From: an uncultured virus (IMG/VR IMGVR_UViG_3300033153_014157)
Taxonomy: Duplodnaviria > Heunggongvirae > Uroviricota > Caudoviricetes
IMG/VR virus record: IMGVR_UViG_3300033153_014157
DNA length: 61,783 nucleotides
Strand: one strand, 5' to 3'
Shown here: positions 27,096 to 56,770 of the stretch, piece after piece
How positions within the stretch are numbered: the first letter of the stretch is position 1
Layout of the letters: the number at the start of each line of letters is the position of its first letter
Program-made: the position numbers and the translations under genes
The notes under the pieces: model-generated
The model's input: only the letters and a program-made list of their open reading frames with translations
Database searches by the model: none
What the model was told of the DNA's origin: nothing

Positions 27096-27135
27096 AAATT
27101 TTTTTATTAGTGCCGAGATTTAATGTTTCTGTTCA

Positions 27136-36855: not shown

Positions 36856-36859
36856 TATT

Positions 36860-40319: not shown

Positions 40320-41177
40320 GTGGTGATTCGCGTGTATATAGACGTGCCCATTGAAATTAATGAAATCACTATGATTAAAGCATATGACGCTCTCTCAATG
40401 CTTTTACAAAACCCTGACGATTCAGACGCATGGCAGCTAAATTTCAACAAGGTTGCCAAAATGATAGAAAGGAGAGATGCCGAAAATAGCGGGGATCTTC
40501 CCTTTGGCACGTCACTGCCGGCGTGGTATTGCGAAAAAAATGATGAAAACAATATATTGTTTTCCCCTCCTATAGTGCATGGTAAAAAAGCGGTCAGGTT
40601 GTCAGTGCCCGTGGCGTGCGTGGGTAATAGCACGCACATCAATGCGCGCGTGCACGTTCTCGGCAAAAATTTGAAGCCAATTCGCTCTCAATTTGCGTGC
40701 CTGACTACTACACAGTTGTCTCTATTGTCGATATTCGCAGTCTGGGATACAGTTGCCAGGATTGGCACTAAGGAAGCAGTAAACGCGGGGATCGTCACTA
40801 GAGGGTGGGTCGGTAACGTCTTCTCAGATATAAGATGCAGCGCGTATGATCCGTACTCGCAACTGGGGCGCTATGCCCGTGGTTCTAAATTATCTCCACG
40901 CAATTTAGAGCTACTCCATTTGGAACGGCAACTATTTATACACGGCATTCCGCTATCAGCCGTTCACGGCGAAGGGCGGCGCGATAACGCGGGGCGATAT
41001 TACAACTCGTGGTTTAAAGACAATTACTGCACGGCGTGTGGGCGGCGGTACAGCTACCCCTCGCGCAGATACCCTAACGCGTTCCTGTCACACGTTAAAA
41101 CAATAAAACATAGAAAAAATGCTGCCATTTTTTTATTGAGAGAGGTTGCCAGGCAGGGCAGTGACGAAAAAGAGTGA
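40320..41177 (+). CDS. hypothetical protein with C-terminal C2H2 (matrin/U1-like) zinc finger
   Basis: YCTAC...F.SH..T.KH. Confidence 0.65.
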   Translation: MVIRVYIDVPIEINEITMIKAYDALSMLLQNPDDSDAWQLNFNKVAKMIERRDAENSGDLPFGTSLPAWYCEKNDENNILFSPPIVHGKKAVRLSVPVACVGNSTHINARVHVLGKNLKPIRSQFACLTTTQLSLLSIFAVWDTVARIGTKEAVNAGIVTRGWVGNVFSDIRCSAYDPYSQLGRYARGSKLSPRNLELLHLERQLFIHGIPLSAVHGEGRRDNAGRYYNSWFKDNYCTACGRRYSYPSRRYPNAFLSHVKTIKHRKNAAIFLLREVARQGSDEKE

Positions 41178-41210
41178 CTGACCACTTTTTTTAAATGCAG
41201 GGGCGAAAAA

Positions 41211-41606
41211 ATGATACGCAAAAAAATAAAAAAAATAAAAAACTTCTTTTTTTTGAGCGGGCTTCGCAAGGCACTAAAGAAGGCAGGGTTTGAGCCGTGC
41301 GGCGACACTGGCTTTTGGTCGTACGAGGTCAGTGATGACGTTCGCTATGTCGTGAGCGAGCCAGATTTATTTTGCGGCACGTTCCATGTTTCTGAATTCA
41401 CGAAAGAAGGAGAATATGACAAAGACTCCACGTCTTACTTAGGCGTGGTGGTGCTGGATAAATTGTTAGAAATCGCAAGGACGGTCACTGGCGAGGCTTC
41501 GCTGGTCGGCTGTGACTACGGGTATTACTATTATAAAGAAGCCTGTAGGCGCAAAGGGTGGATTTTCAACGACGGCTTCCCGCCAAAAATTAAAAAAAGA
41601 GTTTAA
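41211..41606 (+). CDS. hypothetical protein
   Basis: 131-aa ORF. Confidence 0.6.
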   Translation: MIRKKIKKIKNFFFLSGLRKALKKAGFEPCGDTGFWSYEVSDDVRYVVSEPDLFCGTFHVSEFTKEGEYDKDSTSYLGVVVLDKLLEIARTVTGEASLVGCDYGYYYYKEACRRKGWIFNDGFPPKIKKRV

Positions 41607-41824
41607 TGCGAATTAAGTGCTCGGTAGAATTCATTCAATAACTTAATTCGCTTTTCCTTTCCCCGCACGAGCACGTATGCGATACTTGCAAGCTCTAGCG
41701 CGCTGTCTAGCGGCGCGTGTGGGTCTAGCTCAAGTATGTGCCAAAATAACTCAGCCACTGACTCGTGGTGGCGTGTTTTTGGCACGAAATTTTCTCTTAA
41801 CATGTCCATTTTCATACACCTCAT
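41603..41824 (-). CDS. small hypothetical protein downstream of TROVE
   Basis: GAGGTG SD before an internal ATG. Confidence 0.55.
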   Translation of the reverse strand: MRCMKMDMLRENFVPKTRHHESVAELFWHILELDPHAPLDSALELASIAYVLVRGKEKRIKLLNEFYRALNSH

Positions 41825-41839
41825 GAAGCTGGTAAGTAA

Positions 41840-43468
41840 CTAGGCATCGCCACGTTTTTTTATTTCGTCCGTCACCGTGTTACCATTCAAAACTAAATTT
41901 ATGAAACCAAGAACCGAGTCTGACCAGCCGGAAATCACGTGATTTCTAGGGTCAGACAGGTCTAAGGCAGAGTCATTAATGTAAGGGTCGATGCGTAACA
42001 AGAACGCCTGTAGGTCAGGGTTGACGGAGTCACGGTATTCCTTCAGGCACGCCATCACGCCGTGGTAGATCCATTCTTCGTTGTCAGTAATTTCGAGCAG
42101 GACGTCAGCCTTTATCCCGCGGTCTATCATTGCTTTAACGGGAATCGCAAGATCAGTTCCTCCGCCACGAATGGCTGATAAATAATCCACGATGCCCATG
42201 ATCTTCCCATGGCTTCTGTGATCAAATTCGTGCTCTTGATGATCAAATGGGATCAACGTGACGTCCTTGCATTTTTTGGCTAACGCTGCGCCAAAGATTG
42301 CCGCAATCTCTATGAAACGATATTTAGCTTTTCGAACCCTTGTTGTCATTGAGCCTGATACATCTATTCCGACTATCACTTTTCCAGTGATTTCAGGCAT
42401 GTTGACGAACGACTTTTCCAATGCAATAGCTAATGCATTTAATATGCGTGCAGGCACGCCGTTAGAACTTGCAACTTTCCAAGCTGTAAATAGCCTGAAT
42501 GGAAGGATCTTTGCCTTTTCCATGGCATTAACGTCAGTTAGTCTATCAACGATATATCCGATGTTATTAGAATCATTGAAGACACCATTCTTGTTTAACG
42601 CGTTTAGATGCCTCAATAATGCAAAGTACGGCATTTGCTTTATCATGGCTTCCCAGATTCTTGCATCAGGTTTTACAATGGACGTTGCGACTTCGTGTGG
42701 TATCTGCCCTCCCTTTATGAGTTTTAGGACTTCTTCTTCGTCACTGGCGCGCTTGAGCATCTCGTACTGCTTGATCTTTGGCATTTTAGACAACATTTCG
42801 GCAGCGACAGCCTCGTCTTGACGGCTGAACTTGTGCAGCCACGCAACGATATTATACTTGTCATTCATTTCTTCTCGTGATACATGGACTAGCTTCGTTG
42901 CAATTTTTAATTCCTTGCGGTATTTTATTGCCCAATATTCCGACAGGTTGTTAGAAAGCCATCGTTTAATGACCGACTTTATCTTGCGCCCCAAGCCTTT
43001 TCGCACGCCGAAAACATTCTTGCAAAGAAGCATGAAGTCGAACAGGTCTTTTGGGGTAAGGACCACGCGGTTAAACACGCGCTCAAATTTGTTTTTTGGA
43101 AATTTGGTGCTCAAGAACACGGCTGCAATTATTGGTTGAAGCCTCATGAAACCATTGTTGCGTGCGCATGTTGCCGCTTTAGCAAGAAAATCAGGGCACT
43201 CGTTAATTGCTTGTTTATACAAATTAAGGCTTTGTTGTAATGCTGCTCCTTGCGTGTCGTAGAAGGTTGGTTCAATAATGTTGCAGGTCAAGTTCTGCAC
43301 GATCATTAGCTCTAATGGCTGCGAAAAGGAGGGAAACCCTTCTTTGTTAACGCGCGTTGCGCTAATGCTACTAGTGTTTCTCAATATGTTACCTCCTAAA
43401 TCACGCTTGGTTACGTGATATATAAAACTTTTGATATTTTTTGGTGCGAACCTTGCCCTTGCTGGCAA
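41840..43468 (-). CDS. Ro60/Rsr TROVE + vWA RNA-binding protein
   Basis: N.EG...F, TFY, MR..P, GLGR..K....WL, MPY.ALLR.L, ILPFR, vWA MIDAS DVSGSM, GGGTD, ITDNE. Confidence 0.93.
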   Translation of the reverse strand: MPARARFAPKNIKSFIYHVTKRDLGGNILRNTSSISATRVNKEGFPSFSQPLELMIVQNLTCNIIEPTFYDTQGAALQQSLNLYKQAINECPDFLAKAATCARNNGFMRLQPIIAAVFLSTKFPKNKFERVFNRVVLTPKDLFDFMLLCKNVFGVRKGLGRKIKSVIKRWLSNNLSEYWAIKYRKELKIATKLVHVSREEMNDKYNIVAWLHKFSRQDEAVAAEMLSKMPKIKQYEMLKRASDEEEVLKLIKGGQIPHEVATSIVKPDARIWEAMIKQMPYFALLRHLNALNKNGVFNDSNNIGYIVDRLTDVNAMEKAKILPFRLFTAWKVASSNGVPARILNALAIALEKSFVNMPEITGKVIVGIDVSGSMTTRVRKAKYRFIEIAAIFGAALAKKCKDVTLIPFDHQEHEFDHRSHGKIMGIVDYLSAIRGGGTDLAIPVKAMIDRGIKADVLLEITDNEEWIYHGVMACLKEYRDSVNPDLQAFLLRIDPYINDSALDLSDPRNHVISGWSDSVLGFINLVLNGNTVTDEIKKRGDA

Positions 43469-43492
43469 CTAAAAAAAATAAATAAAAAGAAA

Positions 43493-43552
43493 AGAGGATT
43501 GGCGCAAAGGCAAGTAATGAGAATTTTTCGAAGTAGCCCTTGCGATACCTCT
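43493..43552 (-). ncRNA. candidate structured RNA / 5' leader upstream of Ro60 (Y-RNA-like)
   Basis: AGAGG/CCTCT and CGCAAGGGC/GCCTTTGCG helices (the mismatch is G-U only on the minus strand), TATA ~25 nt upstream, U-tract downstream. Confidence 0.5.
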
Positions 43553-43605
43553 ATAAATTTCGTGTTCAAGATGTTATATAAAACTTCTTATTTCGTGGTG
43601 ATGAC

Positions 43606-45282
43606 ATGACGAGAAAGATCCCTGGCTACACGAAATTGCCAATATTCGAGCAGATAAACCTTCGCGCGCTATACTCCCCGCTATATTTTTACATTGCGGC
43701 TAACTGCCATGACTGGAAGACTTCGTACCCGTGCATGCTACTTCGCACTAAGCAAGCAGAACAATGCGGTATTGACGTTAGGCGTGAAACAAAGAAGTTC
43801 ATGATTGACTCGCTCAATACCGATATCACGCCGGCAGAATTAATTAAATTACAGCAAGAGTTAAAAGTCAATACGTTTATAGCGCGTGATTCATTTCGTG
43901 ACCCCGATGCGACCACAAAGCTGATAATAGAATACCTGACGTGTTTATTGCGAGAAGAAATATTTCCAGAACGCATCATGTTAATAATTCAAGGTGATTC
44001 GGTAAAGGACTATATAACGCATTTTGACACGTTGCTCGTGCTCGCAAATAATTCAGCAGAGTGCATTAATTGTAACCATGCCGGCACGTGCAAGATATTA
44101 TTTCGCCAAAACCTTACTTCGTCAAATATCAGTTACCACGAAAGACATCACTGCGCGCGTGGCGAGAAAGAAAAGCGGAAGTGGACATTCACCTTTGGAA
44201 TTGGAGGGCTGATACGACGCGCTATAAACATGCAAGAACGCATAATAAAAGCGGTAATCCAGCACGGAATAGAGATGAACAACTCGATACAAAATGACGT
44301 TCTTCCAAAACGCACGCGTGATATAATGACCAATACTCGTGACGGGACGATAAAACGTTTCGACTATCCACCAATACAATTTCACGTGCTTGGTGTCGGG
44401 GCTTCAAAAAAAATCTTCCCATTGGTAATGCAAAATCAGCCGTACATCGAATCGTTTGACTCGAGCGTGCCGTCCCTGATTGCGACCGTCCCGAAGTTTT
44501 TCGATAAGAAATTGGCGCAGTTTCCAACTAAAAAAGAGCAGCTGAGGGCAATGCCTTACGAAACGTTAACCTTTAGGGAGGAAGATGACGTTGGAAACGT
44601 TGCGGCATTAAACGCGCTTCGGGCATATTACAACACGGCAATGATACTATACGCGATGGAAAGCAATCTCAAGATGGTTAGAGCTAACGAAACGATCAAC
44701 ATGTTAAAACGGTTCATTCCACGCCCCCCTAAATCGTCATCAATTGATGCTTCAATACTCGAATTCATATCACCAGTCATGACGAGAAAAGAAAAAATCT
44801 TATTGGGTAGTGGCTATGAAAAGAAGAAGAATGTTGGCATGGCAGACGAAAAAATAATTGGTGATGCATTAAAACGATGGACTGCTTCCTATCGCAAGAC
44901 GGGGCGAATGAATATAAGCCTTGCACTACTTCGTGCGCTCGTGATATTACAGGAAATAAATACCGTGCAAGTGTTAGCTCTAATCCCATCTATAAAAAGC
45001 CCCAGCGCGGCAATGAACGTGATAACGGACGGGTATGAGATCTGCGAGTACCCGATATGCGAAGACGCGCGCTCTTATGGCGAGTGGAAAAAAAATAGAT
45101 CTGGAAAACGCGTCCTGAAAACGATTCGCATCAAGGAGCGGTGGCTTCGCCTAGTGTTGAAACACGTGCTTGCCGATGCGTCAAAAGTCGATGAATACAT
45201 GAAATACTTGAAGCAAAAAAGAAAAGAAAAAATAAAGTTGGGAATGCTATTCGTTAAATGCGAAATCCATGGTACAGATTGA
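43606..45282 (+). CDS. tRNA-guanine transglycosylase-fold protein (TGT/DpdA-like) with insertions and C-terminal extension
   Basis: FMIDS, IARD, IIQG, FGIGGL, FHVLGVG, ESFDSS motifs in TGT order. Confidence 0.8.
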   Translation: MTRKIPGYTKLPIFEQINLRALYSPLYFYIAANCHDWKTSYPCMLLRTKQAEQCGIDVRRETKKFMIDSLNTDITPAELIKLQQELKVNTFIARDSFRDPDATTKLIIEYLTCLLREEIFPERIMLIIQGDSVKDYITHFDTLLVLANNSAECINCNHAGTCKILFRQNLTSSNISYHERHHCARGEKEKRKWTFTFGIGGLIRRAINMQERIIKAVIQHGIEMNNSIQNDVLPKRTRDIMTNTRDGTIKRFDYPPIQFHVLGVGASKKIFPLVMQNQPYIESFDSSVPSLIATVPKFFDKKLAQFPTKKEQLRAMPYETLTFREEDDVGNVAALNALRAYYNTAMILYAMESNLKMVRANETINMLKRFIPRPPKSSSIDASILEFISPVMTRKEKILLGSGYEKKKNVGMADEKIIGDALKRWTASYRKTGRMNISLALLRALVILQEINTVQVLALIPSIKSPSAAMNVITDGYEICEYPICEDARSYGEWKKNRSGKRVLKTIRIKERWLRLVLKHVLADASKVDEYMKYLKQKRKEKIKLGMLFVKCEIHGTD

Positions 45283-45546
45283 CGAATACGGAACTAACAT
45301 GCCGTATTTTTCGATATGGATGCTGCCGTTTTCTTCGCGATATATATCGTGAACGATCATTGATTCTGACAACAACACGCCTACAACTATATCGGTTAAT
45401 TCGTTGTTTGACGTCTCGATTACCAGTTCTATTGGTTCTGCGCCTCGTTCAATGTCCTTGACGAAAAAAGAATACTTTTTTGATGCCTGCGAATTCACGT
45501 GCCTAGAGGCTTCTCTTAGAAAATAACTTATATCATTTTCTAACAT
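45247..45546 (-). CDS. hypothetical protein
   Basis: 99-aa ORF with GGAGA SD. Confidence 0.55.
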   Translation of the reverse strand: MLENDISYFLREASRHVNSQASKKYSFFVKDIERGAEPIELVIETSNNELTDIVVGVLLSESMIVHDIYREENGSIHIEKYGMLVPYSSICTMDFAFNE

Positions 45547-45568
45547 TGTATCTCTCCGATTTTTTTAG

Positions 45569-45847
45569 TCACGCGCTCTTGTCTATTTCGTCCCGCAACG
45601 TATATTCGCTTTTTATTGCGGTATCAACCGCAACCTGTAGCCGACTGATTAACTCCGTCATTTCTTGAAGACTGAGTTTCATTGACTGTCCTTCAGTCAT
45701 CAATTTTACGAAGAAATATGACGGCTTTACATACTTGCCTTTATAGATAGCCGGTTTTATCACATCGACTGTCAGCTTAGACGAAACCTTGTTTTCGATG
45801 AAATGCGTGATGTCTATCACTTTTATGCTGTTTGACATTTTATTCAC
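45569..45847 (-). CDS. hypothetical protein (beta sheet + helix, possibly PC4-like)
   Basis: 92-aa ORF; fold guess only. Confidence 0.55.
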   Translation of the reverse strand: MNKMSNSIKVIDITHFIENKVSSKLTVDVIKPAIYKGKYVKPSYFFVKLMTEGQSMKLSLQEMTELISRLQVAVDTAIKSEYTLRDEIDKSA

Positions 45848-45888
45848 AAGGTTAAAATATTTTCTTCATGAATATTAAATTATTGCGC

Positions 45889-46000
45889 GGGACCGAGACG
45901 AAAAAAAAGTGACTTGAATTATTTTTAAGCTCCTCCAAAATCCTGACCGTTTTTCGTGCATCGTAGTCTTAATCGTCCCGGTCCCACCTTTTTCTCGTCT
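45889..46000 (-). ncRNA. candidate structured RNA with two overlapping long helices
   Basis: 45889-45901 pairs with 45973-45985 (13 bp) and 45896-45911 pairs with 45985-46000 (16 bp); all three mismatches are G-U on the minus strand. Confidence 0.5.
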
Positions 46001-46060
46001 TTCCACCGAAAGATTTTTTATACCGTAATGCATTACCAAATGTAAATTAGAGGTGATTAC

Positions 46061-46831
46061 ATGCTCCTTAAGAAAAAAAACCTACCACTCATCAAGGCGA
46101 TTGCAAAAATATCGCCCATGCTCACGCTAACTGATGGGGAACAGGGAACGATGTTCATGGCAAATGATGAAAACCTGAGCATTGTATCCATGCTTACCAT
46201 CAAAAACGGTGACGATTTCATTAATGATACGTTTGCCGTGGATTCAAACGTTCTCGTCAATGCTTTGAAACGGCTAAACGATGCAACGCTGATAGTCCAC
46301 GAGAATAAGATCGTGCTGAAAGAAAAAAAGAGGAAACTCAGCATAAAGAAGAGAGCCATTGAACAAGAACAAATGTTCAACATCAAGCAGCTAAAGACTA
46401 TTTTTAAGAAGCTTGATGATATCGGAACGTTCGGCGGCGATACACTAAAGATCATTTTCGATGATATCCTCATGCACTCGAAAATATCTAAAGTTCAACC
46501 GCTAGTCCACATAAAAAGCATCCACGATAAGAACCACAAGATTTCTTTTATCTTTGATGGAGTAGATAGTGAATACGAGTGCGTGCTTCCTAGCAATTCT
46601 CCTACTACTACTAATAAGAATGAGTGCAATGCATCATTCAACGTTGACATGCTTAAAAACTTTGCAATCAAGGGCGTGAAGTATCATCTAAAAACCAATA
46701 ATGACATGCCCTTGTTAATGACACACGAGGACGAAGATATAGTCCTGCAGATACTAGCAGCACCAACTGTCGAATCTGGCGATGATAACGAATTTGACGT
46801 TTCGATTAATGAGGATGATGAAAATGGCTGA
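46061..46831 (+). CDS. pcna: divergent PCNA sliding clamp
   Basis: ~250-aa two-domain pattern (M.ND....I.S, F.VD...L...LK, ASFNVD.LK, DMPL, ILAAP) with acidic tail. Confidence 0.7.
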   Translation: MLLKKKNLPLIKAIAKISPMLTLTDGEQGTMFMANDENLSIVSMLTIKNGDDFINDTFAVDSNVLVNALKRLNDATLIVHENKIVLKEKKRKLSIKKRAIEQEQMFNIKQLKTIFKKLDDIGTFGGDTLKIIFDDILMHSKISKVQPLVHIKSIHDKNHKISFIFDGVDSEYECVLPSNSPTTTNKNECNASFNVDMLKNFAIKGVKYHLKTNNDMPLLMTHEDEDIVLQILAAPTVESGDDNEFDVSINEDDENG

Positions 46832-47627
46832 AAACACTGTTGATATAGACACGTGCTCACACGAGCACGTATGCACTAATTCTAACGGCGAACAGGTATG
46901 TAGCACGTGCGGGCTAGTAATTGACGACTTTAGAGTCGTTCCAGAAGTAAGGCATTGGAAAAGAACGCATGAGCGTAACTCGTTCGCCATCACGCATATT
47001 AATAGTACCGTGCCAAACCGGCTCAAGCGGCTCAACGATTACGCGCCAATATCAAAAGCATTCAACTCGTACCTTATGTACATTTACGACATACAAAGGA
47101 TTATTGGTTTCTCCAATAACGTCAAGACCGACTTGGTGCACATAATGAAAAAAGAGTTGCGGGACAGGGGCACCAAAAACATGTATGCATTCATATTTGC
47201 CGCGGCTGTAATAATCGGGCGGCAGCACGGGGAACTGATACCGATAAAATCGATGCAGAAAATCCCTAAAATGCGTAAACGCAAACCCGGGAATTGCCTA
47301 AAGAACATTGCATACATAAAAGCCAAATATGGCTATTACATGAATCGCATGGACAAAAACCGCTTACTAAACAACATAATACAACGTCTGAAGAACATTG
47401 CAGGATTCGGCGATGAAGTTGCAATGCTCGTGTTACATGAAGCCGTCAACAATCTTGATAAAATTGACGGAATCGGCGGCGATCCAATAGGCATCAATGC
47501 TGCCCTTGTATATATCGTTGCAAAAAATTGGGTGCGAGTCACGCAAAACATGATGCACGCGGCTGTAAATGTACAGCCCGTGACGCTAAGAAGAAACATC
47601 AGGATAATAAAGAAACGCTTTAATTAA
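46824..47627 (+). CDS. tfb: transcription initiation factor IIB homolog
   Basis: Zn ribbon C.H...GE.VC..CG.VID, EVRHW, two cyclin repeats (G.DP.GI.AA.VYI, VTQ, V.PVTLR). Confidence 0.88.
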   Translation: MAENTVDIDTCSHEHVCTNSNGEQVCSTCGLVIDDFRVVPEVRHWKRTHERNSFAITHINSTVPNRLKRLNDYAPISKAFNSYLMYIYDIQRIIGFSNNVKTDLVHIMKKELRDRGTKNMYAFIFAAAVIIGRQHGELIPIKSMQKIPKMRKRKPGNCLKNIAYIKAKYGYYMNRMDKNRLLNNIIQRLKNIAGFGDEVAMLVLHEAVNNLDKIDGIGGDPIGINAALVYIVAKNWVRVTQNMMHAAVNVQPVTLRRNIRIIKKRFN

Positions 47628-47651
47628 CAAAATGGTACGAGATGGTGGAAA

Positions 47652-47786
47652 ATGCCCGTAATTGACGAGATATTTTATTTGCTTGAAAAAGAACTCGGCT
47701 TCCCGGAAACATCGGTCATAATGGAAGCCGCGTTTGAAATCAAGAGCGGGCTGGCATCCGGCAGCCTGCCTGAATGCGCCGGCTGA
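47652..47786 (+). CDS. putative 44-aa protein
   Basis: Manual translation MPVIDEIFYLLEKELGF...; GGTGG SD; followed by a T-tract. Confidence 0.4.
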   Translation: MPVIDEIFYLLEKELGFPETSVIMEAAFEIKSGLASGSLPECAG

Positions 47787-47945
47787 CCGCCTACTTTTTT
47801 TGAGGCAGATCTTTTTTTCGTCATGTTGTTACGGCGGTATATGGCTAGATTTATATACCAGTTGATACACTACTATACATGGCGACTGGCAGGATAACTA
47901 TGCTCACTGCCGGGATGAAACCAAAAAAAAAGAGGAAGGATTGCT

Positions 47946-48335
47946 ATGGCTAAGAAAAAAATGCTAGTAAATTTTTCAGGACACCCGCTTCCTGAAGCTG
48001 CTCAGAAATCGTTAGGCAAAAAATACGAAATCGTTGACTACGAAGTCCCCAACCTTGACGTCACATCGTCAAAGGCACTAGTGAATTCGACAATTTCCTT
48101 GATGGCTACATTTGTCGGAGAACATAGCGCCAAAATTAAAACTGGTGATTTCGAGATTGTCTTTCCCGGGCTTTCCCCCGTGGCTATCATGGTTCTGACT
48201 ACATTGCACGGATTCTCTGGTCATTTTCCTAAGTTCAGATGGACTTACAGGACTGACAATGGGTTCGCTGTTTCAGAAGCACTTGACCTGCAAAAAATTC
48301 GGCTAGACGCTAGGGCTGACCGTTTTTTCGTATAG
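47946..48335 (+). CDS. csx15: Csx15-family protein (type III CRISPR ancillary), orphan
   Basis: LVNFSGHPL, FPGLSPVA..VL..LHG..GHFP, F.V.E.LDLQ.IR..AR..R match the Csx15 pattern; TATA-like box at ~47850. Confidence 0.8.
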   Translation: MAKKKMLVNFSGHPLPEAAQKSLGKKYEIVDYEVPNLDVTSSKALVNSTISLMATFVGEHSAKIKTGDFEIVFPGLSPVAIMVLTTLHGFSGHFPKFRWTYRTDNGFAVSEALDLQKIRLDARADRFFV

Positions 48336-48618
48336 AATGGCAGGACGCCGTGGAACAAGAATTTTCTTTTAGACGAGCATTTGCATGCCTGATCGCGGTG
48401 CGCAGCGCCGCAAGAGAGAAGCTTGAAGATTCATGGAGGTTCCAAAAAACAATGACCGACGCAATCAACGAACTACGCCTGTTGGAATCTGCCGAAGACT
48501 TTTAAACCCTCCTGCCCTGAAGGGCTCGGCGTTCGGGGCTGCGGAATTAAACCGCGTGAAAAAAAGTCATGTTTTTTTATCTTTAACCTACAATGTTTAA
48601 AAATAATTTTCGAACTCG

Positions 48619-48885
48619 ACCTCGGGAAAAAATCACATGGATGCGTTTTTTTTAAGCGTGTAAAAAAAATGCCAAGCTGAAAATAACGGCGTGCACGTTG
48701 GTATTTTTCGTTTCCAAGAAATTTGGTGCAATGATTTTCCTCGGGGAAAAATTGCATGGATGCGTTTTTTTTAAGCGTGACTCAGTTCGTCTAAGCTGAA
48801 AAAAATGTAATACATGGCGAAATAATGGCTTTTCGAAAAAATTGCCTTTATATTTTCCTCGGGAAAAAATTGCGTGCACGCAATT
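48619..48885 (+). repeat. ~119-bp period direct repeat (2.3 copies) ending in an 18-bp palindrome
   Basis: CCTCGG(G)GAAAAA at 48620, 48739, 48857; CATGGATGCGTTTTTTTTAAGCGTG twice; AATTGCGTGCACGCAATT at 48868-48885. Confidence 0.85.
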
Positions 48886-49118
48886 ATTTTTAGGTTGTGG
48901 TGACGAGATAGACACGTGGCGACTGCCGCAGTCACATCACTACGATGGGGGTTGCATTAAAAATGGCGCGCTCTAACGACCTTTTTTTTGTAAGTGCTGC
49001 AGTCACGCCACGATAACTCGTCAAAAATAAAATGGTCTATATACCATTCATCACGTGATATTTAACATTCTCACGTGCAATTTGATTAGAGCTAACACGC
49101 ACGAAAAAAAAAGGGAAA

Positions 49119-49286
49119 TTACGCTGGGGTGTAGTGGCATTCGAGCGTCATGTCACCAGTACTGTGCCTGCATTCATTACACGCTTCCTCGCTTATTGGT
49201 AACAGGCTTGCGTTATGAACACAGTCAGGGCAGATAATGTCGTCGCTTGGGCACCCACAGTCCCAGTCAGAATCTTTTTTAGTCAC
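49119..49286 (-). CDS. 55-aa Cys-rich (Zn-binding) protein
   Basis: Manual translation: ..DCGC..ICPDCVH..ACNECRH..ECHY; below the ORF-track cutoff. Confidence 0.55.
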   Translation of the reverse strand: MTKKDSDWDCGCPSDDIICPDCVHNASLLPISEEACNECRHSTGDMTLECHYTPA

Positions 49287-49322
49287 TTTTTTTACTTCCT
49301 TGTCCGTGAACTTTTTATTAAT

Positions 49323-49700
49323 TTATATATTTATTCCGGCGATGTGCTTGCACCGCTTAATGCGTTGCCGTACAAGCCGAATCGCCTGACGATCCGCAGC
49401 CGTCATTGTTTTGCCGCGTAACCGCCTTTCAATTGCCCGAACTTGCCGCTCGGTAAAGTTTTTTAGAAGAAATTTTCTCGTGTATGGAAAATAAGAGAAC
49501 AAGACTTTATCCTCAAAGAACTGCTCGGCGATCTTTTTCTCGTCTTTCAGCTCTTTGATGTCAAGCTCTGGCAATTCGAAATTGTTTTCGTAGTAATCCT
49601 TGTTTACCAAGACGTGCATGGCAGCACAGCTACAACGCACGCGTGCTTGTTTGATAAGCGTCTCGTCATTAAACATTTTTTTGCAAAACGGGCATTTCAA
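49323..49700 (-). CDS. zinc-ribbon protein
   Basis: CPFC...CSC; GAGGAGGA SD. Confidence 0.65.
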   Translation of the reverse strand: MKCPFCKKMFNDETLIKQARVRCSCAAMHVLVNKDYYENNFELPELDIKELKDEKKIAEQFFEDKVLFSYFPYTRKFLLKNFTERQVRAIERRLRGKTMTAADRQAIRLVRQRIKRCKHIAGINI

Positions 49701-49736
49701 TTGATTCTCCTCCTCGGTTTCGCCAATTCGAGTTTT

Positions 49737-50204
49737 TTACACGAAATAAAGATAGGATCCCCCGAATTCGTGTTCCGCCGCGTCTTTTGACGAAAGGATT
49801 TTTCCGCGACCAATGTCTTCGATTGCCGCTTCAGTGAACTCCTCTAATCCTATTGCATGTTCAACAAGTAAAAGAAGATCAGCGTTCACTGATTCCGCGG
49901 CACACTCGATCGCTTTTTCGATTATCGGTCCAATCACGTTGCCCAATTCGATATCACACGTTTCAGCGATATACGTGCCTGAAAACGTGTATAAATTTTC
50001 CTTAACTGCTTTTATACACGCTTTGTCTGCTTCCTTTTCGCTCAATGCGATTGCAACTGAGCTGTTGGGAGTCGAAAAAACAGGAAGCCCGTAATGATGC
50101 TCTTTTTTGGCACGTATTTCGTCTTCTTGTACGCCAAGCCATCTTGAAATTATTTGTTTGGGCGTTTCACGCTCCATTTCATTATTTATTGTTGCTTCTG
50201 CCAT
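49737..50204 (-). CDS. hypothetical acidic protein
   Basis: AGGTGA SD and TATA-like box upstream. Confidence 0.7.
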   Translation of the reverse strand: MAEATINNEMERETPKQIISRWLGVQEDEIRAKKEHHYGLPVFSTPNSSVAIALSEKEADKACIKAVKENLYTFSGTYIAETCDIELGNVIGPIIEKAIECAAESVNADLLLLVEHAIGLEEFTEAAIEDIGRGKILSSKDAAEHEFGGSYLYFV

Positions 50205-50329
50205 TTTATCACCTTGCTGTTAGTACTATATACTCACGCAATACATATAAACGTTATGGATCAACAATACCAAGAAAAAGTGAACGGTACTTCGACACGT
50301 GCTGCCATTTTACTTTAACTCGAAAATCA

Positions 50330-50890
50330 ACACGGAACATCACGCCGCAAGAAAGGCATCAATCAACATCAATACGACGCGGCACGAAACCAATCAACTA
50401 CAATCAAGACGAACTCCAATACATGCAACATCAATATTAATGCATCTAAAATGATCGCCCACCAATCAACATCAATCGGGGTAAACCTAAATTTATAATA
50501 CATCAATCTACATCACGCGCATCACGCACGGAGAAATACAACATCTACCAAACGCAATCTAACTCGATCCAACATCAATCTCGACCAATCTACAAGAACG
50601 CAGCAACATGTAACCACAATCAACCTATATATAACTACAATCAACTTCAATCAGCACGCATCAAAAACAAAAAAAACAAAAAAAATAAAGGAAAAGCACG
50701 CAATATAAAAGGACACAAAATCAGTGCCACGCAAACAAAAAATCAAAACACGCAGAGTAATCAGTAAACACGGGAAACAGGCAACCACGCACCACATTAA
50801 CTAAAGCACCTGATAAAAGACGAAAAAATACAGCCCGTCAGATGCAAGGTAAATAAAAAATAAAATGCAATCATTTAATATTAAAAAATT
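50330..50890 (-). repeat. strand-skewed non-coding tract with repeated CAATCAAC motifs (mirror of 36860-37370)
   Basis: CAATCAACATC copies; 16- and 19-bp exact inverted matches to the left tract. Confidence 0.7.
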
Positions 50891-51001
50891 TAGCACGTCA
50901 CTCAAACTCAATCAAGCACTATCAAAACCATTTCTACCACGATCACGAGGCAATCAAAAACGACGCGGAACGACCTGCGGCTTCGCCGCCGCCATCATTT
51001 T
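50891..51001 (-). repeat. inverted element copy B (111 bp)
   Basis: Reverse-complement homolog of 36745-36855. Confidence 0.9.
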
Positions 51002-51250
51002 AGCGGTTTTTTTCTTTATTTTATCGTTTTTTCGTGTTTCGTGTTTTTTTTTAGATGCCTTTTGTGCCGTGTTTCTATTTGTGCCGTTTTTTTTCCAATT
51101 ATTGTCGCCCTAACGTGCTCGTTTTAATCTTGCGACTGATTTTTGTTTATCTCTGCGTTCTTCCTTCCTTGCGTTATATTTTTTAAAAAGAGTTGGTATT
51201 TTTTTTTGCTTTTATCGTGTTTTCGTGTTTTTGATTTTTTTTTATATCTG

Positions 51251-52073
51251 TTATTTTAGCAATATATTTTTTAACGTGCGTATTTCAATATTTGCTTCCT
51301 TGTATAGTTTAAATTTTATTTTTTTTTTTTGAATTTCAGGTATTAAAACGATTACGGCGCAGCCGACTTGCGTTGCTTTTTTTAATTTTGGTTTAATTTT
51401 CTTTTCATATTCGATGTTGCCGTGTAGCCCTGCGACTTCGATGTAATAATTTTGCGTCACGAAGTCATGATAATACTTGTTTTCGTTACTTTTTTTTGGT
51501 ATATTTGAATAAAATGGGATGTCACTTGCTTGGGCAGGGCTCTGCTCGTGATGCTTGGTACCGGCTTCGTATAACGCGTTATCAACGAGCAGTTTTAGTT
51601 TTGAATCCACGCGGTGCCCGTCAATGGCGATGCTTTTTTTTTGCAAATGTTTTAGAATGTAAGCGTGTTGATTGCTTAACGTCAATACCATTTCGTTTGA
51701 GCGTGTTTCTTGTAATTTTTTTCAATGCTTTAATAGCCCCTTCAGATATTTTCAATGATATAGATTGCATGAATTCTTGAATGTTTAGCCCGCTGTCGTG
51801 AATACGAGATGCATTGCATTCATGCTCGTGTTTAAACATTATTCTGCAAGCGCAACAGCTAAAATCCTCTGCCTTAGTTATCATGTTCATTGATTGGCTA
51901 CACGTTCTATTTTTTTGTGAGAATTCATGAAAATGATAATAATTATCCATTTCAAAACGACATTTTTCCAATAAATGCTCGTGTTCAATTTTTTGCGCCT
52001 GTAACTTAACGCCCTTGACCAATAGTTCCAATTCTTTCTCGCTTCGTTTCATCCTATTTCGATGATCGTGCAT
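51251..52073 (-). pseudogene. PD-(D/E)XK-like nuclease gene apparently split by a frameshift in an A9 run
   Basis: DGH.V.S....VDN.LY, DF....YIE..G motifs in 51251-51691; removing one A at 51634-51642 fuses it to ORF 51621-52073. Confidence 0.55.
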
Positions 52074-53515
52074 GCGATTTCCTTTTCAATGCCCGCGTGT
52101 TCAATAATTATTTCTGCGATTGTTTTTCTTGCGACTGCGATTATTTCTTGTATTGACTTTTTCTTCAGTATTTCGCGGTCAGGGATTGCGATTGTCTTGA
52201 TGACGACTTCTTCTTGCATTGTTTTTTTGACTGCGTTAATTTTTATATTGAACCTGATGTTGTTTTTTTGTAATTTCAATTTTTGGCTAATGACCGATTT
52301 TCCCCCGTGCGTTTCGAACGCGAAGTTTTGTTTTACGTGTATTGCGTGTTTTCCTTGCACGTATTTATTGATGTCATGAATGATCTCTTGCTTTTGTTTT
52401 TCGATCTTGTTAGTGCCTGCTTCTACCCTGACAGTGACTTTTTTGCGCCCGTGCTGGCACGTAATGGTGGCGACACGTGTTGCATTTTTGTCGTTGCGCA
52501 TTAGCGTGATGCTTCTTTCGGGACCTACTGTTTCTTGGTTTTGAATCACGGCGATGTACTTGTTTTTTTTGTTTTCTTTGATGCCCGTTATTTTTTTTAG
52601 CACGCCCGCAACGCCTCCTTTGCCCCCCGCGTGCATGTTGACATCGATCAATATCTTGCTCGTGATTCCGTCAAACATTATCGGCTCTTCTGGCGCGCGC
52701 GATGTAGATATTCTTCGGATTCCGAATTTTTTCATTGCGTTATTTTTGATCTCCCTTTTAATGTTTGCCCATAACTCACTTTTCGCAAGCGCAATGACTG
52801 GGCGCGCGTGTGCCACGTATTCTTTCACGGCACCCGCGAATACCGTTCTTCCAGTAACGGCGTGCATTGTCCTGCAGATGTCGAATGCCATCGACTTTTT
52901 CATGGTTAACACGTTTCCCCGTGCGTGCCGGTAATAGCCATGTTTCGACATTTCGCGCCTTGCGATTTTCATCATGCGTGTCAGTTCTGCGTCATACATG
53001 AAGTCTTCAGTGGCTATCGGAATGTAATTCGCCGTGTTGATGTAGAACTTCACGTTCATCACGTCGCCAGTGACGCGAAATAATGTCTTCACGCCAAACG
53101 TTCTAGGCATCGTCAGCACGGAGTAATTTCTGTCGTCCGTGATGTCGAAATCATCGATCTCATACATTATAGTGAAAAAATCGAATGGTCGAAACGCGCC
53201 GTTCACCTCAAATAGTATTTCACTCGTGAGTCCCGGCTCGAACCACCTGCCGATAGTGCCGACAGACAGCGCGTCACGAATCAAGCACTCGTGATTGAAC
53301 AGGACGCTCGGGTACCGCGCCAATTCTTCGATCTTGTGGTCATGGATCAATATCTTCCCCACCTGCACGTCACTGCCTTTTAACAAAAATACCAGTTCCT
53401 TCTCTATTCCAACGGCAGAGCCACTTTTTTCCGTGACTGATAGTTCTTCCGATGCAAAATGTTTCAAAAACATGCTGATGATGTATCCCGGGCGACCGAC
53501 ATTATCCACGAACAT
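52049..53515 (-). CDS. unknown protein, family B copy 2
   Basis: Paralog of 55256-56770 (CLIR.ALS.G, P.DFF...Y.IDDF.I.DDR.Y, F.ICRTM...T). Confidence 0.8.
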   Translation of the reverse strand: MFVDNVGRPGYIISMFLKHFASEELSVTEKSGSAVGIEKELVFLLKGSDVQVGKILIHDHKIEELARYPSVLFNHECLIRDALSVGTIGRWFEPGLTSEILFEVNGAFRPFDFFTIMYEIDDFDITDDRNYSVLTMPRTFGVKTLFRVTGDVMNVKFYINTANYIPIATEDFMYDAELTRMMKIARREMSKHGYYRHARGNVLTMKKSMAFDICRTMHAVTGRTVFAGAVKEYVAHARPVIALAKSELWANIKREIKNNAMKKFGIRRISTSRAPEEPIMFDGITSKILIDVNMHAGGKGGVAGVLKKITGIKENKKNKYIAVIQNQETVGPERSITLMRNDKNATRVATITCQHGRKKVTVRVEAGTNKIEKQKQEIIHDINKYVQGKHAIHVKQNFAFETHGGKSVISQKLKLQKNNIRFNIKINAVKKTMQEEVVIKTIAIPDREILKKKSIQEIIAVARKTIAEIIIEHAGIEKEIACTIIEIG

Positions 53516-55133
53516 CTTGATCTTGCATCACCCCGCGGTAAATCACTTCATTGACATACTTCGTGTTGCGCCATTGCAATCTTGACAACACGCCATCCAG
53601 TTCGGCTTCGGTAACGGCATTGCCGAGAAAATATCTCAACGGGACTGACGTTATCATCACCAATTTGACGCGTTTCTCGTAAAACTTTTCGAAAAAAACT
53701 ATCATGTCAATGTTAAACGGGTACTCAACCACGCGATTTGTTAATAACACGTTAAAGTTATCCATTGATAAACCGACCGAGCGGCGTTCCGCACTCACCT
53801 TTTTCAGCGCGCCGGTCACGGCAGTTGAAAAACCCGATTTTACAAGCTGGTTCACTACAAACCCGTGGCTAATGGGGGAGATCGCAGTCCATTTCAAATC
53901 ACTGTCGTGCACGGCGTTTAGCGTGTAATTTTCATCAGACACGATTCTTTTGAAATCATCCCGCCCCCTAAATGTTGTTATGAAGCGTTTCAAGAAATCG
54001 TGCAAGCACGCGCCGTCAGGAACGCCACGACCTTTACTTATCAGTTTTGACGCATCGCTCAATTCTCGACCTCGCGCGTCACAAAAGACGTGCCTGAGAT
54101 GAATTTCCCCACGCCTCGACTCACGCTCTCGCAGGCACATTGATTCGTACGTGGTGCAGCCTGAAACGTCGCGCGTTGTTTCGGACACCGACATTTCATA
54201 TTCACCGCGCAATACCTTTAACACGCCCGACACGAATGGATAAGAAGAATAGATATAAGTATATGACAGCGTGTTAAAAATAAGCGGGTACCCGCGCCTA
54301 GACAACACGAATTCGCGGTATCTCTCCGTCAGGGCACTTATCATTTCTTTACAGACACGGCTCTCCGAAATGATTCTTGCAATGAGGTTCTTTGTATCCG
54401 TCACGAAGTCGCCATCAATCAAGCCAGACAGTAATGACATCATTTCATATAACGTGCCGATTATAATGTTTGGCTCCGTCACGTTCTTGGTCAATTTCAC
54501 GCCATAAAACGTGGCGTTCTCCGGCGTGCCGTATGACAAAAATTCTTCGGTAGCGGCGCCAGGCAATACCCTCTCATTTTCATTAAACTCGATGAGTGAA
54601 ATGCCTTGATGGTCACCAGCTGACAGCACTAATGGTTTGCCGTGCTTCTTCACGACCGAAATTAATAACGGTATCTTACTAAAGTTTGTCAATGACTTTC
54701 CCCTGTTTATGGAAGCCGACATCTTGAATTCAAGGCTCGGCGAAAAATTGTTTATCACTGACACGCAATCGCTAGAACGTGATGCAATGCCGCGTATCAG
54801 TCTGAACTGATCTCGATCATCTGCAGATATTTCAAGAATGACGTTATAAAGGCGCTTGCTTCTAATATACCTAGAAAATATTTCTTTCATGCCCACGATT
54901 TTAATGAAATCTAGCAATGCCTCCTTGCCGAATATCACTACACTCACGCGCCCGTTTTCTGTATTAACTGTCAATTTGACCTTTCCGCCCTTCGAAAATC
55001 TCAGCCCGCTTCTTTCATACCCTAACTTTTCAAGTGAAAGCATCATGTCGATAAATGCCGTGCTAGGCTCGTTCAACATGTCAATGCCAACGCGCGTTAA
55101 AGTAAACTTTCCTGATTTCGTGACGCTCACCAC
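53502..55133 (-). CDS. unknown protein, family A copy 2
   Basis: Paralog of 56767-58464 (QF.LIR, SP.L.FK, RYR.F.LSR.GYP, ERRS.GLS, PFNID). Confidence 0.8.
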   Translation of the reverse strand: MVSVTKSGKFTLTRVGIDMLNEPSTAFIDMMLSLEKLGYERSGLRFSKGGKVKLTVNTENGRVSVVIFGKEALLDFIKIVGMKEIFSRYIRSKRLYNVILEISADDRDQFRLIRGIASRSSDCVSVINNFSPSLEFKMSASINRGKSLTNFSKIPLLISVVKKHGKPLVLSAGDHQGISLIEFNENERVLPGAATEEFLSYGTPENATFYGVKLTKNVTEPNIIIGTLYEMMSLLSGLIDGDFVTDTKNLIARIISESRVCKEMISALTERYREFVLSRRGYPLIFNTLSYTYIYSSYPFVSGVLKVLRGEYEMSVSETTRDVSGCTTYESMCLRERESRRGEIHLRHVFCDARGRELSDASKLISKGRGVPDGACLHDFLKRFITTFRGRDDFKRIVSDENYTLNAVHDSDLKWTAISPISHGFVVNQLVKSGFSTAVTGALKKVSAERRSVGLSMDNFNVLLTNRVVEYPFNIDMIVFFEKFYEKRVKLVMITSVPLRYFLGNAVTEAELDGVLSRLQWRNTKYVNEVIYRGVMQDQDVRG

Positions 55134-55255
55134 AGTACCTAGGCACTTGAATTATTTAAAGTTGCCAAGAAAGTGTGACTCGCAAAAACGTTTCAGAATC
55201 AAACACGTCCAAGCGTGCCTTTCGGCAACGCGCATTCACGCACGCCGACTTATTT

Positions 55256-56770
55256 TCAAACCCATTGCCGCATCGTGAATATCTCTAACATTGTCTTTCT
55301 GTTTATCCCCGTGTTATCAGCAATCTTGTTTATGGCATCATTAATCCCCTTATCAATGATGCTCTTGATGCCGTTTTTCTTGGCGTTTTGCACTTTTATC
55401 TTGATGTTGACGAACGCCACGATTACACTTGGTTGCATTTTCCGTATTGTTATCTTGACCACGTTTCCATCAACGTATTCTATTAATTCCGTTTTATTCT
55501 TGATGGTCTTCGCGCGGCTCTTGTTTTTCATTTCAAATGCAGCGGTTTTTCGGACGTGAATTATCGTTCTCGAATTCCTGTTTACCGCAATGACGCAATT
55601 CACGATGTCGTTTACTGCCTCCACCTTGTATTTTTCGTCTTCCGTATTTTTTATCACGAACCTTGCGTTCCGACGACCGCATTTTACGGTTGCGACCAGC
55701 TCTGGCACGTTCATGTCATTTCGCAAGATTTCGTGTTCTACAGCGCGTGAACGCTTCTGTATCGCGATCGCACGCGTGTCTTCGTAAAGCTGCATTGCTT
55801 CATAAAACAAAATGTACTTGCTTCTTGAATTGTTTTTCACGTTGACGAGCGCGCGCATCACGGCAGCCACGTTCTCATTTATGACGTGTATCGTGATTAA
55901 AGGTGGGCTTGTAAACCCGTCAATCAATATCACTCGCATTTGCCCGTCACGGTCTTGAACGACCAGCTTTGGTAATATTCCTTCTTTTCGAAGGCGATTG
56001 GTCTTCCTCTTTTCTAATATCAAGTCATTCAAGTCATTCTTCACGCTTTCAATGAATTTCTGCACGTGCCCAATGTACTCTTTTATCAGATCTGCAAACA
56101 ACGGCATTTTCGTCGCCGAGTACATCGTCCTGCAGATCTCGAACATTATAGCTCTTACTGGTGAGAACACTTCATGACGTGTCGTTTGCCTGTTATAATC
56201 ATCCTTGTCAAGCTCGCGCTTCGCGATGGAAAGCATTCTGTTTAACTCGCTGTCATGGACAAAGTGTTTTATCATCATCCGAATACGGTTGTCATGGCTC
56301 GTGTAGAAGCGCGCGACCATCACGCCATCGTCCACGTCAAATCGAGCTTTCAGTCCGTCTTCCCTCGTGGTTATCATTACCGTGTAGTGCCTGTCATCAA
56401 AAATCGTGAAGTCATCAATATCGTACCTGTCAATGAAGAAATCTATCGGAACGAATGCATTGTCCACGTGGAAAGAAATCTCATCCGTGACACCAAACCA
56501 CTCTGGCACAACGCCATACGATAACGCGCTGCGTATGAGGCAATTACGGTTTATGTCCGCGCTACAAATCTTCATTCGCTTATTGATGACGACTGGATTT
56601 ATTGTCAGCCATCCGATCGGCGCATCGTTGTTTTCCATTAGAAACACAAATTCTACCACGCCGCTAGATTCTTTTTTAACGACCGATAATTTGTTAGATG
56701 CAAAACGTGCAATGAACAAGCCTATGATTACACTTTTTCTGTCAAACACGTCGTCAATATGCATTCTCAC
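55256..56770 (-). CDS. unknown protein, family B copy 1
   Basis: Paralog of 52049-53515; start overlaps the upstream stop. Confidence 0.8.
   Translation of the reverse strand: MRMHIDDVFDRKSVIIGLFIARFASNKLSVVKKESSGVVEFVFLMENNDAPIGWLTINPVVINKRMKICSADINRNCLIRSALSYGVVPEWFGVTDEISFHVDNAFVPIDFFIDRYDIDDFTIFDDRHYTVMITTREDGLKARFDVDDGVMVARFYTSHDNRIRMMIKHFVHDSELNRMLSIAKRELDKDDYNRQTTRHEVFSPVRAIMFEICRTMYSATKMPLFADLIKEYIGHVQKFIESVKNDLNDLILEKRKTNRLRKEGILPKLVVQDRDGQMRVILIDGFTSPPLITIHVINENVAAVMRALVNVKNNSRSKYILFYEAMQLYEDTRAIAIQKRSRAVEHEILRNDMNVPELVATVKCGRRNARFVIKNTEDEKYKVEAVNDIVNCVIAVNRNSRTIIHVRKTAAFEMKNKSRAKTIKNKTELIEYVDGNVVKITIRKMQPSVIVAFVNIKIKVQNAKKNGIKSIIDKGINDAINKIADNTGINRKTMLEIFTMRQWV

Follow-up and report, generated by a model that had tools for sequence, protein, structure and literature searches.

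Does a Csx15 gene that stands alone on a virus-like element serve that element as an anti-CRISPR? The question is raised by a stretch of 61,783 nucleotides (the window) from an uncultured virus, IMG/VR record IMGVR_UViG_3300033153_014157. An earlier note, written from the letters alone, had picked out a 129-residue protein with a Csx15 pattern in this window and had read it as a host off-switch captured to counter the cyclic oligoadenylate (cOA) signalling of type III CRISPR systems. Our analysis places the protein in the Csx15 family and finds its functional residues intact. On balance, and with modest confidence, we consider it probable that the gene's product is a working Csx15 ring nuclease that stands alone on an archaeal virus-like element and serves there as an anti-CRISPR of the proposed AcrIII-3 type. 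That its ligand would be cyclic tetra-adenylate (cA4), that it would cleave this ligand as well as bind it, when it would be expressed and that it would help the element against CRISPR are points that we infer.

The Csx15 open reading frame (ORF) begins with ATG at 47946 and ends with TAG; the start of 47840 in the earlier note takes in the upstream signals as well. The NCBIfam model NF040560 (CAS_Csx15) matched the 129-aa protein with an E value of 3.2e-19 and 69.4 bits, against a curated cutoff of 35, and the match runs end to end, with residues 6-126 covering profile positions 1-125 of 125. PADLOC's Csx15 model also matched (7.7e-11). A search of solved chains with the single sequence returned 9tet_A (7.3e-8) and 9teu_A (5.9e-5), and a three-sequence profile raised these to 9.3e-9 and 2.6e-6, respectively. 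Since these matches agree, the pattern call was correct and, on its sequence, the protein is a member of the Csx15 family. Pfam, searched to E 10, gave no family for it, not even DUF1874, which we take to be the AcrIII-1 viral ring nuclease; the assignment to a family other than AcrIII-1 therefore holds too. The gene has a GC content of 0.441, in line with the right-hand part of the window.

The premise that Csx15 acts on cA4 is borne out by two 2026 preprints, which show binding, filament stacking and cleavage in most of the members tested. Chi et al. (bioRxiv 10.64898/2026.01.21.700848) describe Csx15 dimers stacked head to tail, with the S9/H11 face of PfCsx15 contacting H82, R116, R120 and R123 of the next dimer. 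The same authors report that cleavage by CliCsx15 needs H13 and H90, that its oligomerisation needs H90, and that Y113 (F106 in PfCsx15) lies beside the adenine (10.64898/2026.01.21.700848). Klimavicius et al. (bioRxiv 10.64898/2026.10.26.761840) identify H8 and R125 as catalytic and R118 as required for binding, and they place a composite active site between dimers of the cA4-induced filament. Across the two studies, the substitutions H8A, H13A, H90A, R118A and R125A led to loss of cleavage and/or filament formation (10.64898/2026.01.21.700848; 10.64898/2026.10.26.761840).

All seven residues linked to cA4 binding, stacking and cleavage are kept in the window's Csx15: S11 and H13 on the head face, and H88, F107, R119, R123 and R126 on the tail face. 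The mapping was made from the search alignments to 9tet and 9teu together with the numbering of both preprints. Each solved chain carries seven extra N-terminal residues, such that S16/H18 of the 9tet chain are Pf S9/H11, and H20, H97 and Y120 of the 9teu chain are Cli H13, H90 and Y113. Because this seven-residue offset matches the papers' numbering, 9tet is PfCsx15 and 9teu is CliCsx15. The window's N9-F-S11-G-H13-P pairs with NFSGH in both chains, so that S11/H13 correspond to Pf S9/H11 and Cli H13 (H8 in HaCsx15 and CsCsx15). H88 corresponds to Pf H82 and Cli H90, and F107 to Cli Y113 and Pf F106. The arginine triad R119/R123/R126 has the 4,3 spacing of Pf R116/R120/R123 and Cs R119/R123/R126 (Ha R118/R122/R125); R126 lies one residue past the end of the 9teu alignment, and its equivalence is drawn from this spacing and the family alignment. 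Conservation was assessed over 142 Csx15 domain rows, taken from the best 150 representatives and the locus proteins. S11 was found in 128 rows, H13 in 133, H88 in 124 and an aromatic residue at 107 in 139, while R119, R123 and R126 of the triad were found in 133, 135 and 124, respectively. The window's own clade keeps all seven residues in eight of eight rows, which argues for selection for the known Csx15 activity. As far as alignment can tell, the functional residues are intact and none has been disarmed.

The presence of these residues does not guarantee catalysis, because PfCsx15 keeps S9, H11, H82, R116, R120 and R123 yet shows almost no cleavage (10.64898/2026.01.21.700848). The window's Csx15 could likewise be a cA4 sponge that binds the signal and sequesters it in filaments with little or no cleavage. 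We regard this as unlikely. Three of the four Csx15 proteins tested (Cli, Ha and Cs) cleave (10.64898/2026.01.21.700848; 10.64898/2026.10.26.761840), and PfCsx15 belongs to a separate small cluster and is possibly a non-functional outlier (10.64898/2026.10.26.761840). Chi et al. have furthermore argued that sequestration is ill suited to type III systems, which make cOA in large quantities (10.64898/2026.01.21.700848).

Read as a ring nuclease, Csx15 would be expressed from a promoter of its own while the element infects its host or is carried by it, and would rest as a symmetric dimer. When cA4 is produced by the host's Cas10, it would induce head-to-tail stacking of these dimers. Two successive dimers would grip each cA4 molecule, one with S11/H13 and the other with H88/F107/R119/R123/R126, and its ring would be cut without a metal. 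Host effectors that are activated by cA4 (Csx1/Csm6, Can2, Cami1 and the like) would then stay off and the element would escape. Relief of cA4-dependent immunity has been reported in E. coli for over-expressed CliCsx15 and HaCsx15 (10.64898/2026.01.21.700848; 10.64898/2026.10.26.761840).

An AlphaFold2 model of the protein, built from a 38-row alignment, reached a mean predicted local distance difference test score (pLDDT) of 95.5 and a predicted template-modelling score (pTM) of 0.86. In the predicted fold, helices flank a parallel sheet, residues 100-109 form a beta-hairpin and the arginine triad lies on the C-terminal helix. Among the structure-library matches listed, the nearest solved structures are SAVED sensors of the cyclic-oligonucleotide-based antiphage signalling system (CBASS), and the model resembles one SAVED subdomain; 9tet and 9teu were absent from these listed matches. 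The BFVD library of viral structures gave weak matches only, the best at E 2.4e-3. In a two-copy run, a homodimer was predicted with a score of 0.90, and the best of three controls scored 0.00; the mark set for this score is reached by 20 of 30 solved one-chain pairs vs 1 of 23 solved single chains. At least 90% of the contacts agree between dimer runs, and the pLDDT of the partner is at least 89. The interface is predicted to consist of helix 77-91 and the C-terminal helix, with H88 of one copy contacting R119 of the other. Since Csx15 dimers have already been solved, this score may echo those known structures and shows likeness rather than binding; the window's Csx15 is thus a predicted homodimer.

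The nearness to CBASS SAVED sensors also speaks for a broad counter-signalling enzyme whose main target would not be type III, for example one that acts on CBASS trinucleotides or on some other nucleotide signal. CsCsx15 and HaCsx15 also cut 3'3'3'-cAAG and 2'3'3'-cAAA, and Klimavicius et al. raise this possibility for the viral homologs (10.64898/2026.10.26.761840). However, the same preprint describes the genomic association between Csx15 and CBASS as weak and the symmetric dimer site as suited to cA4 (10.64898/2026.10.26.761840). The nearest named relative belongs to the Asgard archaea, where types I and III prevail among class 1 CRISPR systems, and according to one paper CBASS is incomplete in some putative Asgard hosts. 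We consider a main target outside type III improbable, and ring-nuclease activity against cA4 is still the reading that we favour.

The earlier note had also claimed that the 62 kb hold no cas gene and no array, and this proved right. We called 72 non-overlapping ORFs in the window, and among the 71 besides Csx15 neither a cas family nor a CARF, SAVED or cyclase gene was found with Pfam, NCBIfam and PADLOC. Tandem Repeats Finder (TRF) and a repeat finder detected no CRISPR-like array in the window, and Rfam gave no match there at gathering score. An association of Csx15 with a type III (Cas10) locus is therefore lacking within the 62 kb. The window is part of a larger element; the longest contig in the protein's cluster record has 123,783 bases, so that about half was seen and the statement that type III is absent is true for the 62 kb only.

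Relatives of the protein were sought in two ways. A word-indexed search returned two, with 61% and 46% identity, and an exhaustive profile search of 1.84 billion representatives returned 231 at E <=1e-3, 56 of them at <=1e-10. Klimavicius et al. count 764 homologs in the Csx15 family (10.64898/2026.10.26.761840), and our totals are in line with this figure, which marks the family as a small one. A partial match in a Lachnospiraceae genome (33% identity over residues 18-80) was weak and was treated as uninformative. We built a quick maximum-likelihood tree, unrooted, from the 142 domain rows. In it, the window's Csx15 groups with P0002/L004, P0003/L005, L006, the IMG/VR protein of L001 and P0004; a branch with a Shimodaira-Hasegawa-like approximate likelihood ratio test (SH-aLRT) value of 87 separates the resulting eight rows, which comprise six distinct sequences, from all the others. 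The nearest relatives share 43-61% identity with the window's protein. One member, 43% identical, is carried by G001, a complete IMG/VR viral genome of 69,423 bp (CheckV 100%) with a 123-bp direct terminal repeat, whose genes include PolB, the primase large subunit, FEN1, NrdD, a ligase, a helicase and a 3,037-aa ORF. L005 and L006 are orphan-rich contigs of 8.8 and 10.4 kb. Two side observations concern G001: its 3,037-aa ORF (L012 3143-12253, minus strand) has no Pfam or PADLOC match, and three ORFs of about 500 aa stand in a row without detectable similarity to a duplicated module of the window that is described below.

Genes for cas10 or type III systems were absent from four of the four clade contexts that can be judged, namely the window, G001, L005 and L006. 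For G001, this covers 55 of 55 ORFs of at least 80 aa by PADLOC and 53 of 55 by Pfam. The sole cas-named match in any of these contexts was a stand-alone Cas4-like nuclease in G001 (1.2e-9). There is no conserved Csx15 neighbour, as the window, G001 and L005/L006 have no flanking gene in common. Because the contexts share no adjacent gene, Csx15 seems to move between unrelated elements as a single cassette, in the manner of accessory counter-defence genes. Apart from Csx15, the window and G001 have in common only a DprA/SLOG-like protein, which lies away from Csx15. SLOG domains bind nucleotide-derived ligands, and this protein may be a second signal-binding accessory protein.

These contexts bear on whether Csx15 might instead reset or dampen, in the way known from cells, a cyclic-oligonucleotide system of the element's own (type III, CBASS or CARF/SAVED) that is encoded outside the window. 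Most cellular Csx15 proteins come from Cas10-bearing genomes and are able to act in trans (10.64898/2026.10.26.761840), and 62 kb of up to about 124 kb were scanned here. Such a system is nevertheless missing both from the 71 other ORFs of the window and from the complete genome G001, and we therefore rate such self-regulation as a poor bet.

Further relatives include proteins that carry the Csx15 domain twice, in about 300-327 aa (P0005, P0006, P0009, P0010, P0039, P0067 and P0084). These tandem forms, at about 310 aa, take ranks third to eighth in the clade profile search, and P0005, which is annotated as a protein of a Candidatus Lokiarchaeota metagenome-assembled genome (MAG), is the nearest named relative of the window's Csx15. 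In the tree they fall across the midpoint root from the window's clade and are not sister to it. Several other Csx15 proteins, about 160-175 aa long, are extended at the N terminus by a hydrophobic stretch. The tandem and extended forms correspond to the duplicated and transmembrane-fused groups of Klimavicius et al. (10.64898/2026.10.26.761840). Capture of the gene from a host, as had been proposed, is not established, because the tree is unrooted and the cellular relatives come without a known context; the Csx15 identity, the stand-alone state and the known cA4 activity behind the anti-CRISPR proposal did stand.

Several observations weigh against an anti-CRISPR role for the window's Csx15. 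The turnover numbers (kcat) of the tested Csx15 proteins are slow, at 0.27-2.4 per min (10.64898/2026.10.26.761840), and both groups doubt that Csx15 suits a virus as an anti-CRISPR (10.64898/2026.01.21.700848; 10.64898/2026.10.26.761840). Type III systems make much cOA, and the rescue seen in vivo was obtained by over-expression (Chi et al., 10.64898/2026.01.21.700848). Klimavicius et al. call viral Csx15 rare and present its activity as a hypothesis (10.64898/2026.10.26.761840). About 25% of the RefSeq genomes that bear Csx15 are without a type III locus, and the stand-alone state is for that reason no sign of counter-defence by itself. The support for the window's clade is moderate, 87 compared with the tool's mark of 95, and the contigs of its members L004 and P0004 are too short to be judged. 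Neither Pfam nor PHROGs recognised a capsid, portal or tail gene in the window, and the other half or so of the contig could carry a type III, CBASS or CARF/SAVED gene.

A wider proposal, which we put forward tentatively and hold to be rather doubtful as a whole, is that the window's Csx15 and its five nearest distinct relatives form a virus-adapted lineage among viruses of Asgard or other sediment archaea. They would be a true AcrIII-3 family that keeps the filament-dependent active site. They would also act as a broad cyclic-oligonucleotide nuclease that silences type III CRISPR and possibly signals of the CBASS trinucleotide type. This lineage would lie near the Csx15 duplication behind SAVED-type sensors and vSAVED.

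The sequences around the gene (Table 1) suggest how it might be expressed. The earlier note had given it a TATA-like box and a Shine-Dalgarno sequence of its own, and both are present; a promoter role for the former is consistent with the sequence but not proven. Counting both strands, the window has 19 copies of the motif TTTAWATA, of which 8 fall in the 150-nt stretches upstream of the 72 ORFs' start codons. This amounts to 0.74 per kb upstream of ORFs vs 0.15 per kb overall, an enrichment of about five-fold. Because the motif is rare in the window and enriched upstream of ORFs, TTTATATA is plausible as an archaeal promoter. A Shine-Dalgarno-like word lies no more than 20 nt from the start in 19 of the 72 ORFs. 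Oligo-T is the usual archaeal terminator signal, and T-rich runs lie on either side of the gene. Csx15 thus looks like a separate transcription unit. A scan of 47500-49400 for sigma-70 promoters and intrinsic terminators gave counts at or below the shuffled expectation and is ill-suited to archaea. Among sequencing runs, no RNA run was listed as containing the sequence, and one DNA run shared a fraction of 0.05 of its words.

The roughly 1 kb immediately 3' of Csx15 has no convincing ORF and contains three copies of a unit of about 119 nt, with a degenerate fourth upstream. The 41-nt core of the repeat includes an A-run, a short palindrome (GCATGGATGC or GCGTGCACGC) and a T-run, and this pattern was matched three times vs 0.05 expected. 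Rfam has no family for the region. We rejected a CRISPR array as an explanation of these repeats, since about 119 nt is too long a period and degeneracy runs through the whole of each unit. They could be protein-binding sites, hairpin terminators or an origin-like region.

The element itself is sparsely annotated. Matches were obtained for 20 of the 72 ORFs in Pfam (threshold 1e-3) and 15 of the 72 in PHROGs (1e-5), and for 13 of 71 in NCBIfam (1e-5) and 5 of 71 in PADLOC (1e-6). No tRNA, ribosomal or metabolic housekeeping genes were found in the window. The genes that can be named are archaeal-flavoured and DNA-related, with roles in replication, repair and nucleotide supply. A match to Orc1/Cdc6 exceeds its curated cutoff (187.8 vs 181.3), and Pfam and NCBIfam further name a PriS-like protein, a Hef/XPF nuclease, an archaeal-type single-stranded DNA-binding protein, NrdD, a methanogen-type thymidylate synthase and a PNKP-type phosphatase. 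ORFs for a PCNA-like clamp and a TFB-like protein lie directly 5' of the Csx15 region, and the Protein Atlas clusters nearest to the clamp by features are 95-100% viral. In a phage collection, 44000-52000 had no DNA match and Csx15 no protein match, and Orc1 matched three haloarchaeal virus records at only 24-25% identity. An IMG/VR search gave no relatives of the TFB-like neighbour and one of Csx15, and neither protein led to a copy of the element there. Taken together, the gene content looks like that of an archaeal virus or other extrachromosomal element. The description of the gene as stand-alone on a mobile element holds within the 62 kb as far as stand-alone goes; the content is virus-like, and the status of virus is unproven because no virion gene was recognised.

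The window also shows a compositional step at about 36600-37200, where GC changes from 0.359 (1-37000) to 0.422 (37001-61783) and third-position GC from about 0.35 to about 0.50. The step coincides with tandem and direct repeats at 36676-37111 and suggests a mosaic element or a chimeric assembly. That step, the lack of a recognised capsid, portal or tail gene and the quarter or so of RefSeq carriers without type III could all be taken to mean that Csx15 has no role in conflict, as an orphan on a cellular genomic island or a passenger with another function or none, but this seems to us improbable given Pfam matches in just 20 of 72 ORFs, the absence of housekeeping genes, named genes typical of large archaeal viruses, the largely viral clusters nearest to the clamp, a clade member within the complete viral genome G001 and seven functional residues kept clade-wide.

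Table 1. Positions of the Csx15 gene, its flanking signals and other features of the window
Feature	Position	Strand	Remarks
Csx15 gene	47946..48335	+	129 aa, ~14.4 kDa, pI 9.2; NF040560, PADLOC and solved-chain matches, model
Two T7 runs	47795-47801, 47812-47818	+	After a 44-aa ORF; likely end of the upstream transcription unit
TATA-like box TTTATATA	47850-47857	+	96 nt 5' of the ATG; candidate archaeal promoter
Shine-Dalgarno-like GAGGAAGG	47932-47939	+	6 nt before the ATG
T-rich run TTTTCTTTT	48362-48370	+	27 nt past the stop; possible Csx15 terminator
Gap 3' of Csx15	48336-49322		No convincing ORF
Repeat units	48620-48660, 48739-48779, 48857-48897		
PCNA-like clamp	46061-46831	+	No Pfam match; Atlas model vs PCNA clusters, template-modelling (TM) score ~0.77
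TFB-like protein	46782-47627	+	TFIIB Zn ribbon (Pfam); overlaps clamp ORF by 50 nt
Repair cluster	6352-12715	+	353-aa ORF of no family, HerA-like ATPase, Mre11 and Rad50 in a row
Second HerA-like ATPase	15793-18279	-	827 aa, coiled-coil tail; P-loop region resembles a PHROG terminase family
ArdC-like/peptidase fusion	25689-26621	-	ArdC-like anti-restriction domain fused to zincin/M78 peptidase domain
Tandem array of AAAAATAAACG	26943-27098		AT-rich, ~ten copies, 43-nt super-period
DprA/SLOG (YspA-like) protein	29716-30333	-	Rossmann-type; 26% identity (9e-12) to L001 7465-7914
Orphan DNA methylase	34076-34918	+	N6/N4
Ro60/TROVE protein	41840-43468	-	With vWA domain; library matches
Duplicated two-gene module	52049-58464	-	In tandem

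Other features of the element are noted here as observations. The ArdC-like protein and the orphan methylase are, from their domains, candidates for further counter-defence genes. The AT-rich array of AAAAATAAACG lies in the gap that separates the ArdC-like gene from the next ORF, at a distance of about 3 kb from Orc1/Cdc6, and is a possible replication origin. No Y RNA was found near the Ro60 gene by Rfam, and 41000-51300 gave two chance-level rows only; Ro60 is reported from another Asgard-linked virus in a further preprint (bioRxiv 10.1101/2021.07.29.454249). The two-gene module is duplicated with 35% identity (9e-61) between 52049-53515 and 55256-56770 and 34% identity (8e-71) between 53502-55133 and 56767-58464. 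The module has no family in Pfam, PHROGs, NCBIfam or PADLOC, and its 542-aa paralog had no match in the phage collection and no usable one in the Protein Atlas.

Ring nucleases are the main known viral off-switch for type III CRISPR signalling, and those characterised from viruses are limited to AcrIII-1 and the SAVED-type AcrIII-2. Csx15 was looked for in 28,114 phage genomes in 2024, and it was thought to be absent from viruses until the October 2026 preprint. In that work, dated 28 October 2026, Klimavicius et al. (10.64898/2026.10.26.761840) report one viral Csx15 in a Lokiarchaeota virus MAG and more than 20 others in env_nr and IMG/VR. They propose the name AcrIII-3 and state that the activity is untested (10.64898/2026.10.26.761840). 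Viral Csx15 as an anti-CRISPR is thus not new, and the window's protein may be one of their viral sequences, even their Lokiarchaeota virus homolog. It would not open a new field. What the present analysis adds is a fully intact Csx15 whose model is very confident, a small clade known only from cas-free, mostly virus-like surroundings, and G001, a complete viral genome of 69 kb, as a second carrier of a clade Csx15. The window's Csx15 also offers a test case for a slow, filament-dependent enzyme as an anti-CRISPR, a role that both groups doubt.

Among the known systems compared here, AcrIII-1 destroys cA4 and so silences type III CRISPR, is widespread in archaeal viruses, and works fast, by 2'-OH in-line attack within a closed dimer. 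The job proposed for the window's Csx15 is the same, whereas fold and family are unrelated, and Csx15 needs filament assembly, has a composite site between dimers and turns over slowly. AcrIII-2/vSAVED has a related fold, the Csx15 dimer being a structural analogue of one SAVED monomer, and both stack head to tail with a composite site. The window's Csx15 lacks the two fused CARF-like subdomains of SAVED/AcrIII-2 and consists of a single domain covered by one stretch of the profile hidden Markov model (HMM). Crn3/Csx3 is likewise a ring nuclease whose head-to-tail filaments sandwich cA4, but it is a different family and gave no sequence match in the searches with the window's protein.

Within its own family, the protein shares one HMM family, the seven residues and a length of about 125-130 aa with CliCsx15 (9teu), HaCsx15 and CsCsx15. 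Canonical Csx15 has a Rossmann-like fold related to CARF and SAVED, in which helices enclose a five-stranded sheet and a beta-hairpin is present. It is also a dimer with metal-independent chemistry, and the former is predicted and the latter expected for the window's protein. Canonical members are found beside type III loci or in genomes with them, in contrast to the 62-kb window, which has no cas gene. The solved chains share little identity with the window's protein (E 6e-5 to 7e-8). HaCsx15 and CsCsx15 themselves differ in resting oligomer and substrate range (10.64898/2026.10.26.761840). PfCsx15 (9tet, Pseudomonas fluorescens) is, like the window's protein, an orphan that keeps the conserved residues, and cA4 induces it to form filaments. 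It differs in being cellular and a cA4 sponge with nearly no nuclease activity, and Klimavicius et al. assign it to a minor cluster apart from the others, as an outlier that may not be functional (10.64898/2026.10.26.761840). Like the window's protein, vCsx15/AcrIII-3 stands alone on an archaeal virus-like element and is, putatively in both cases, a viral ring nuclease against type III CRISPR; one vCsx15 comes from a Lokiarchaeota virus MAG, and the nearest named relative of the window's Csx15 from a Lokiarchaeota MAG.

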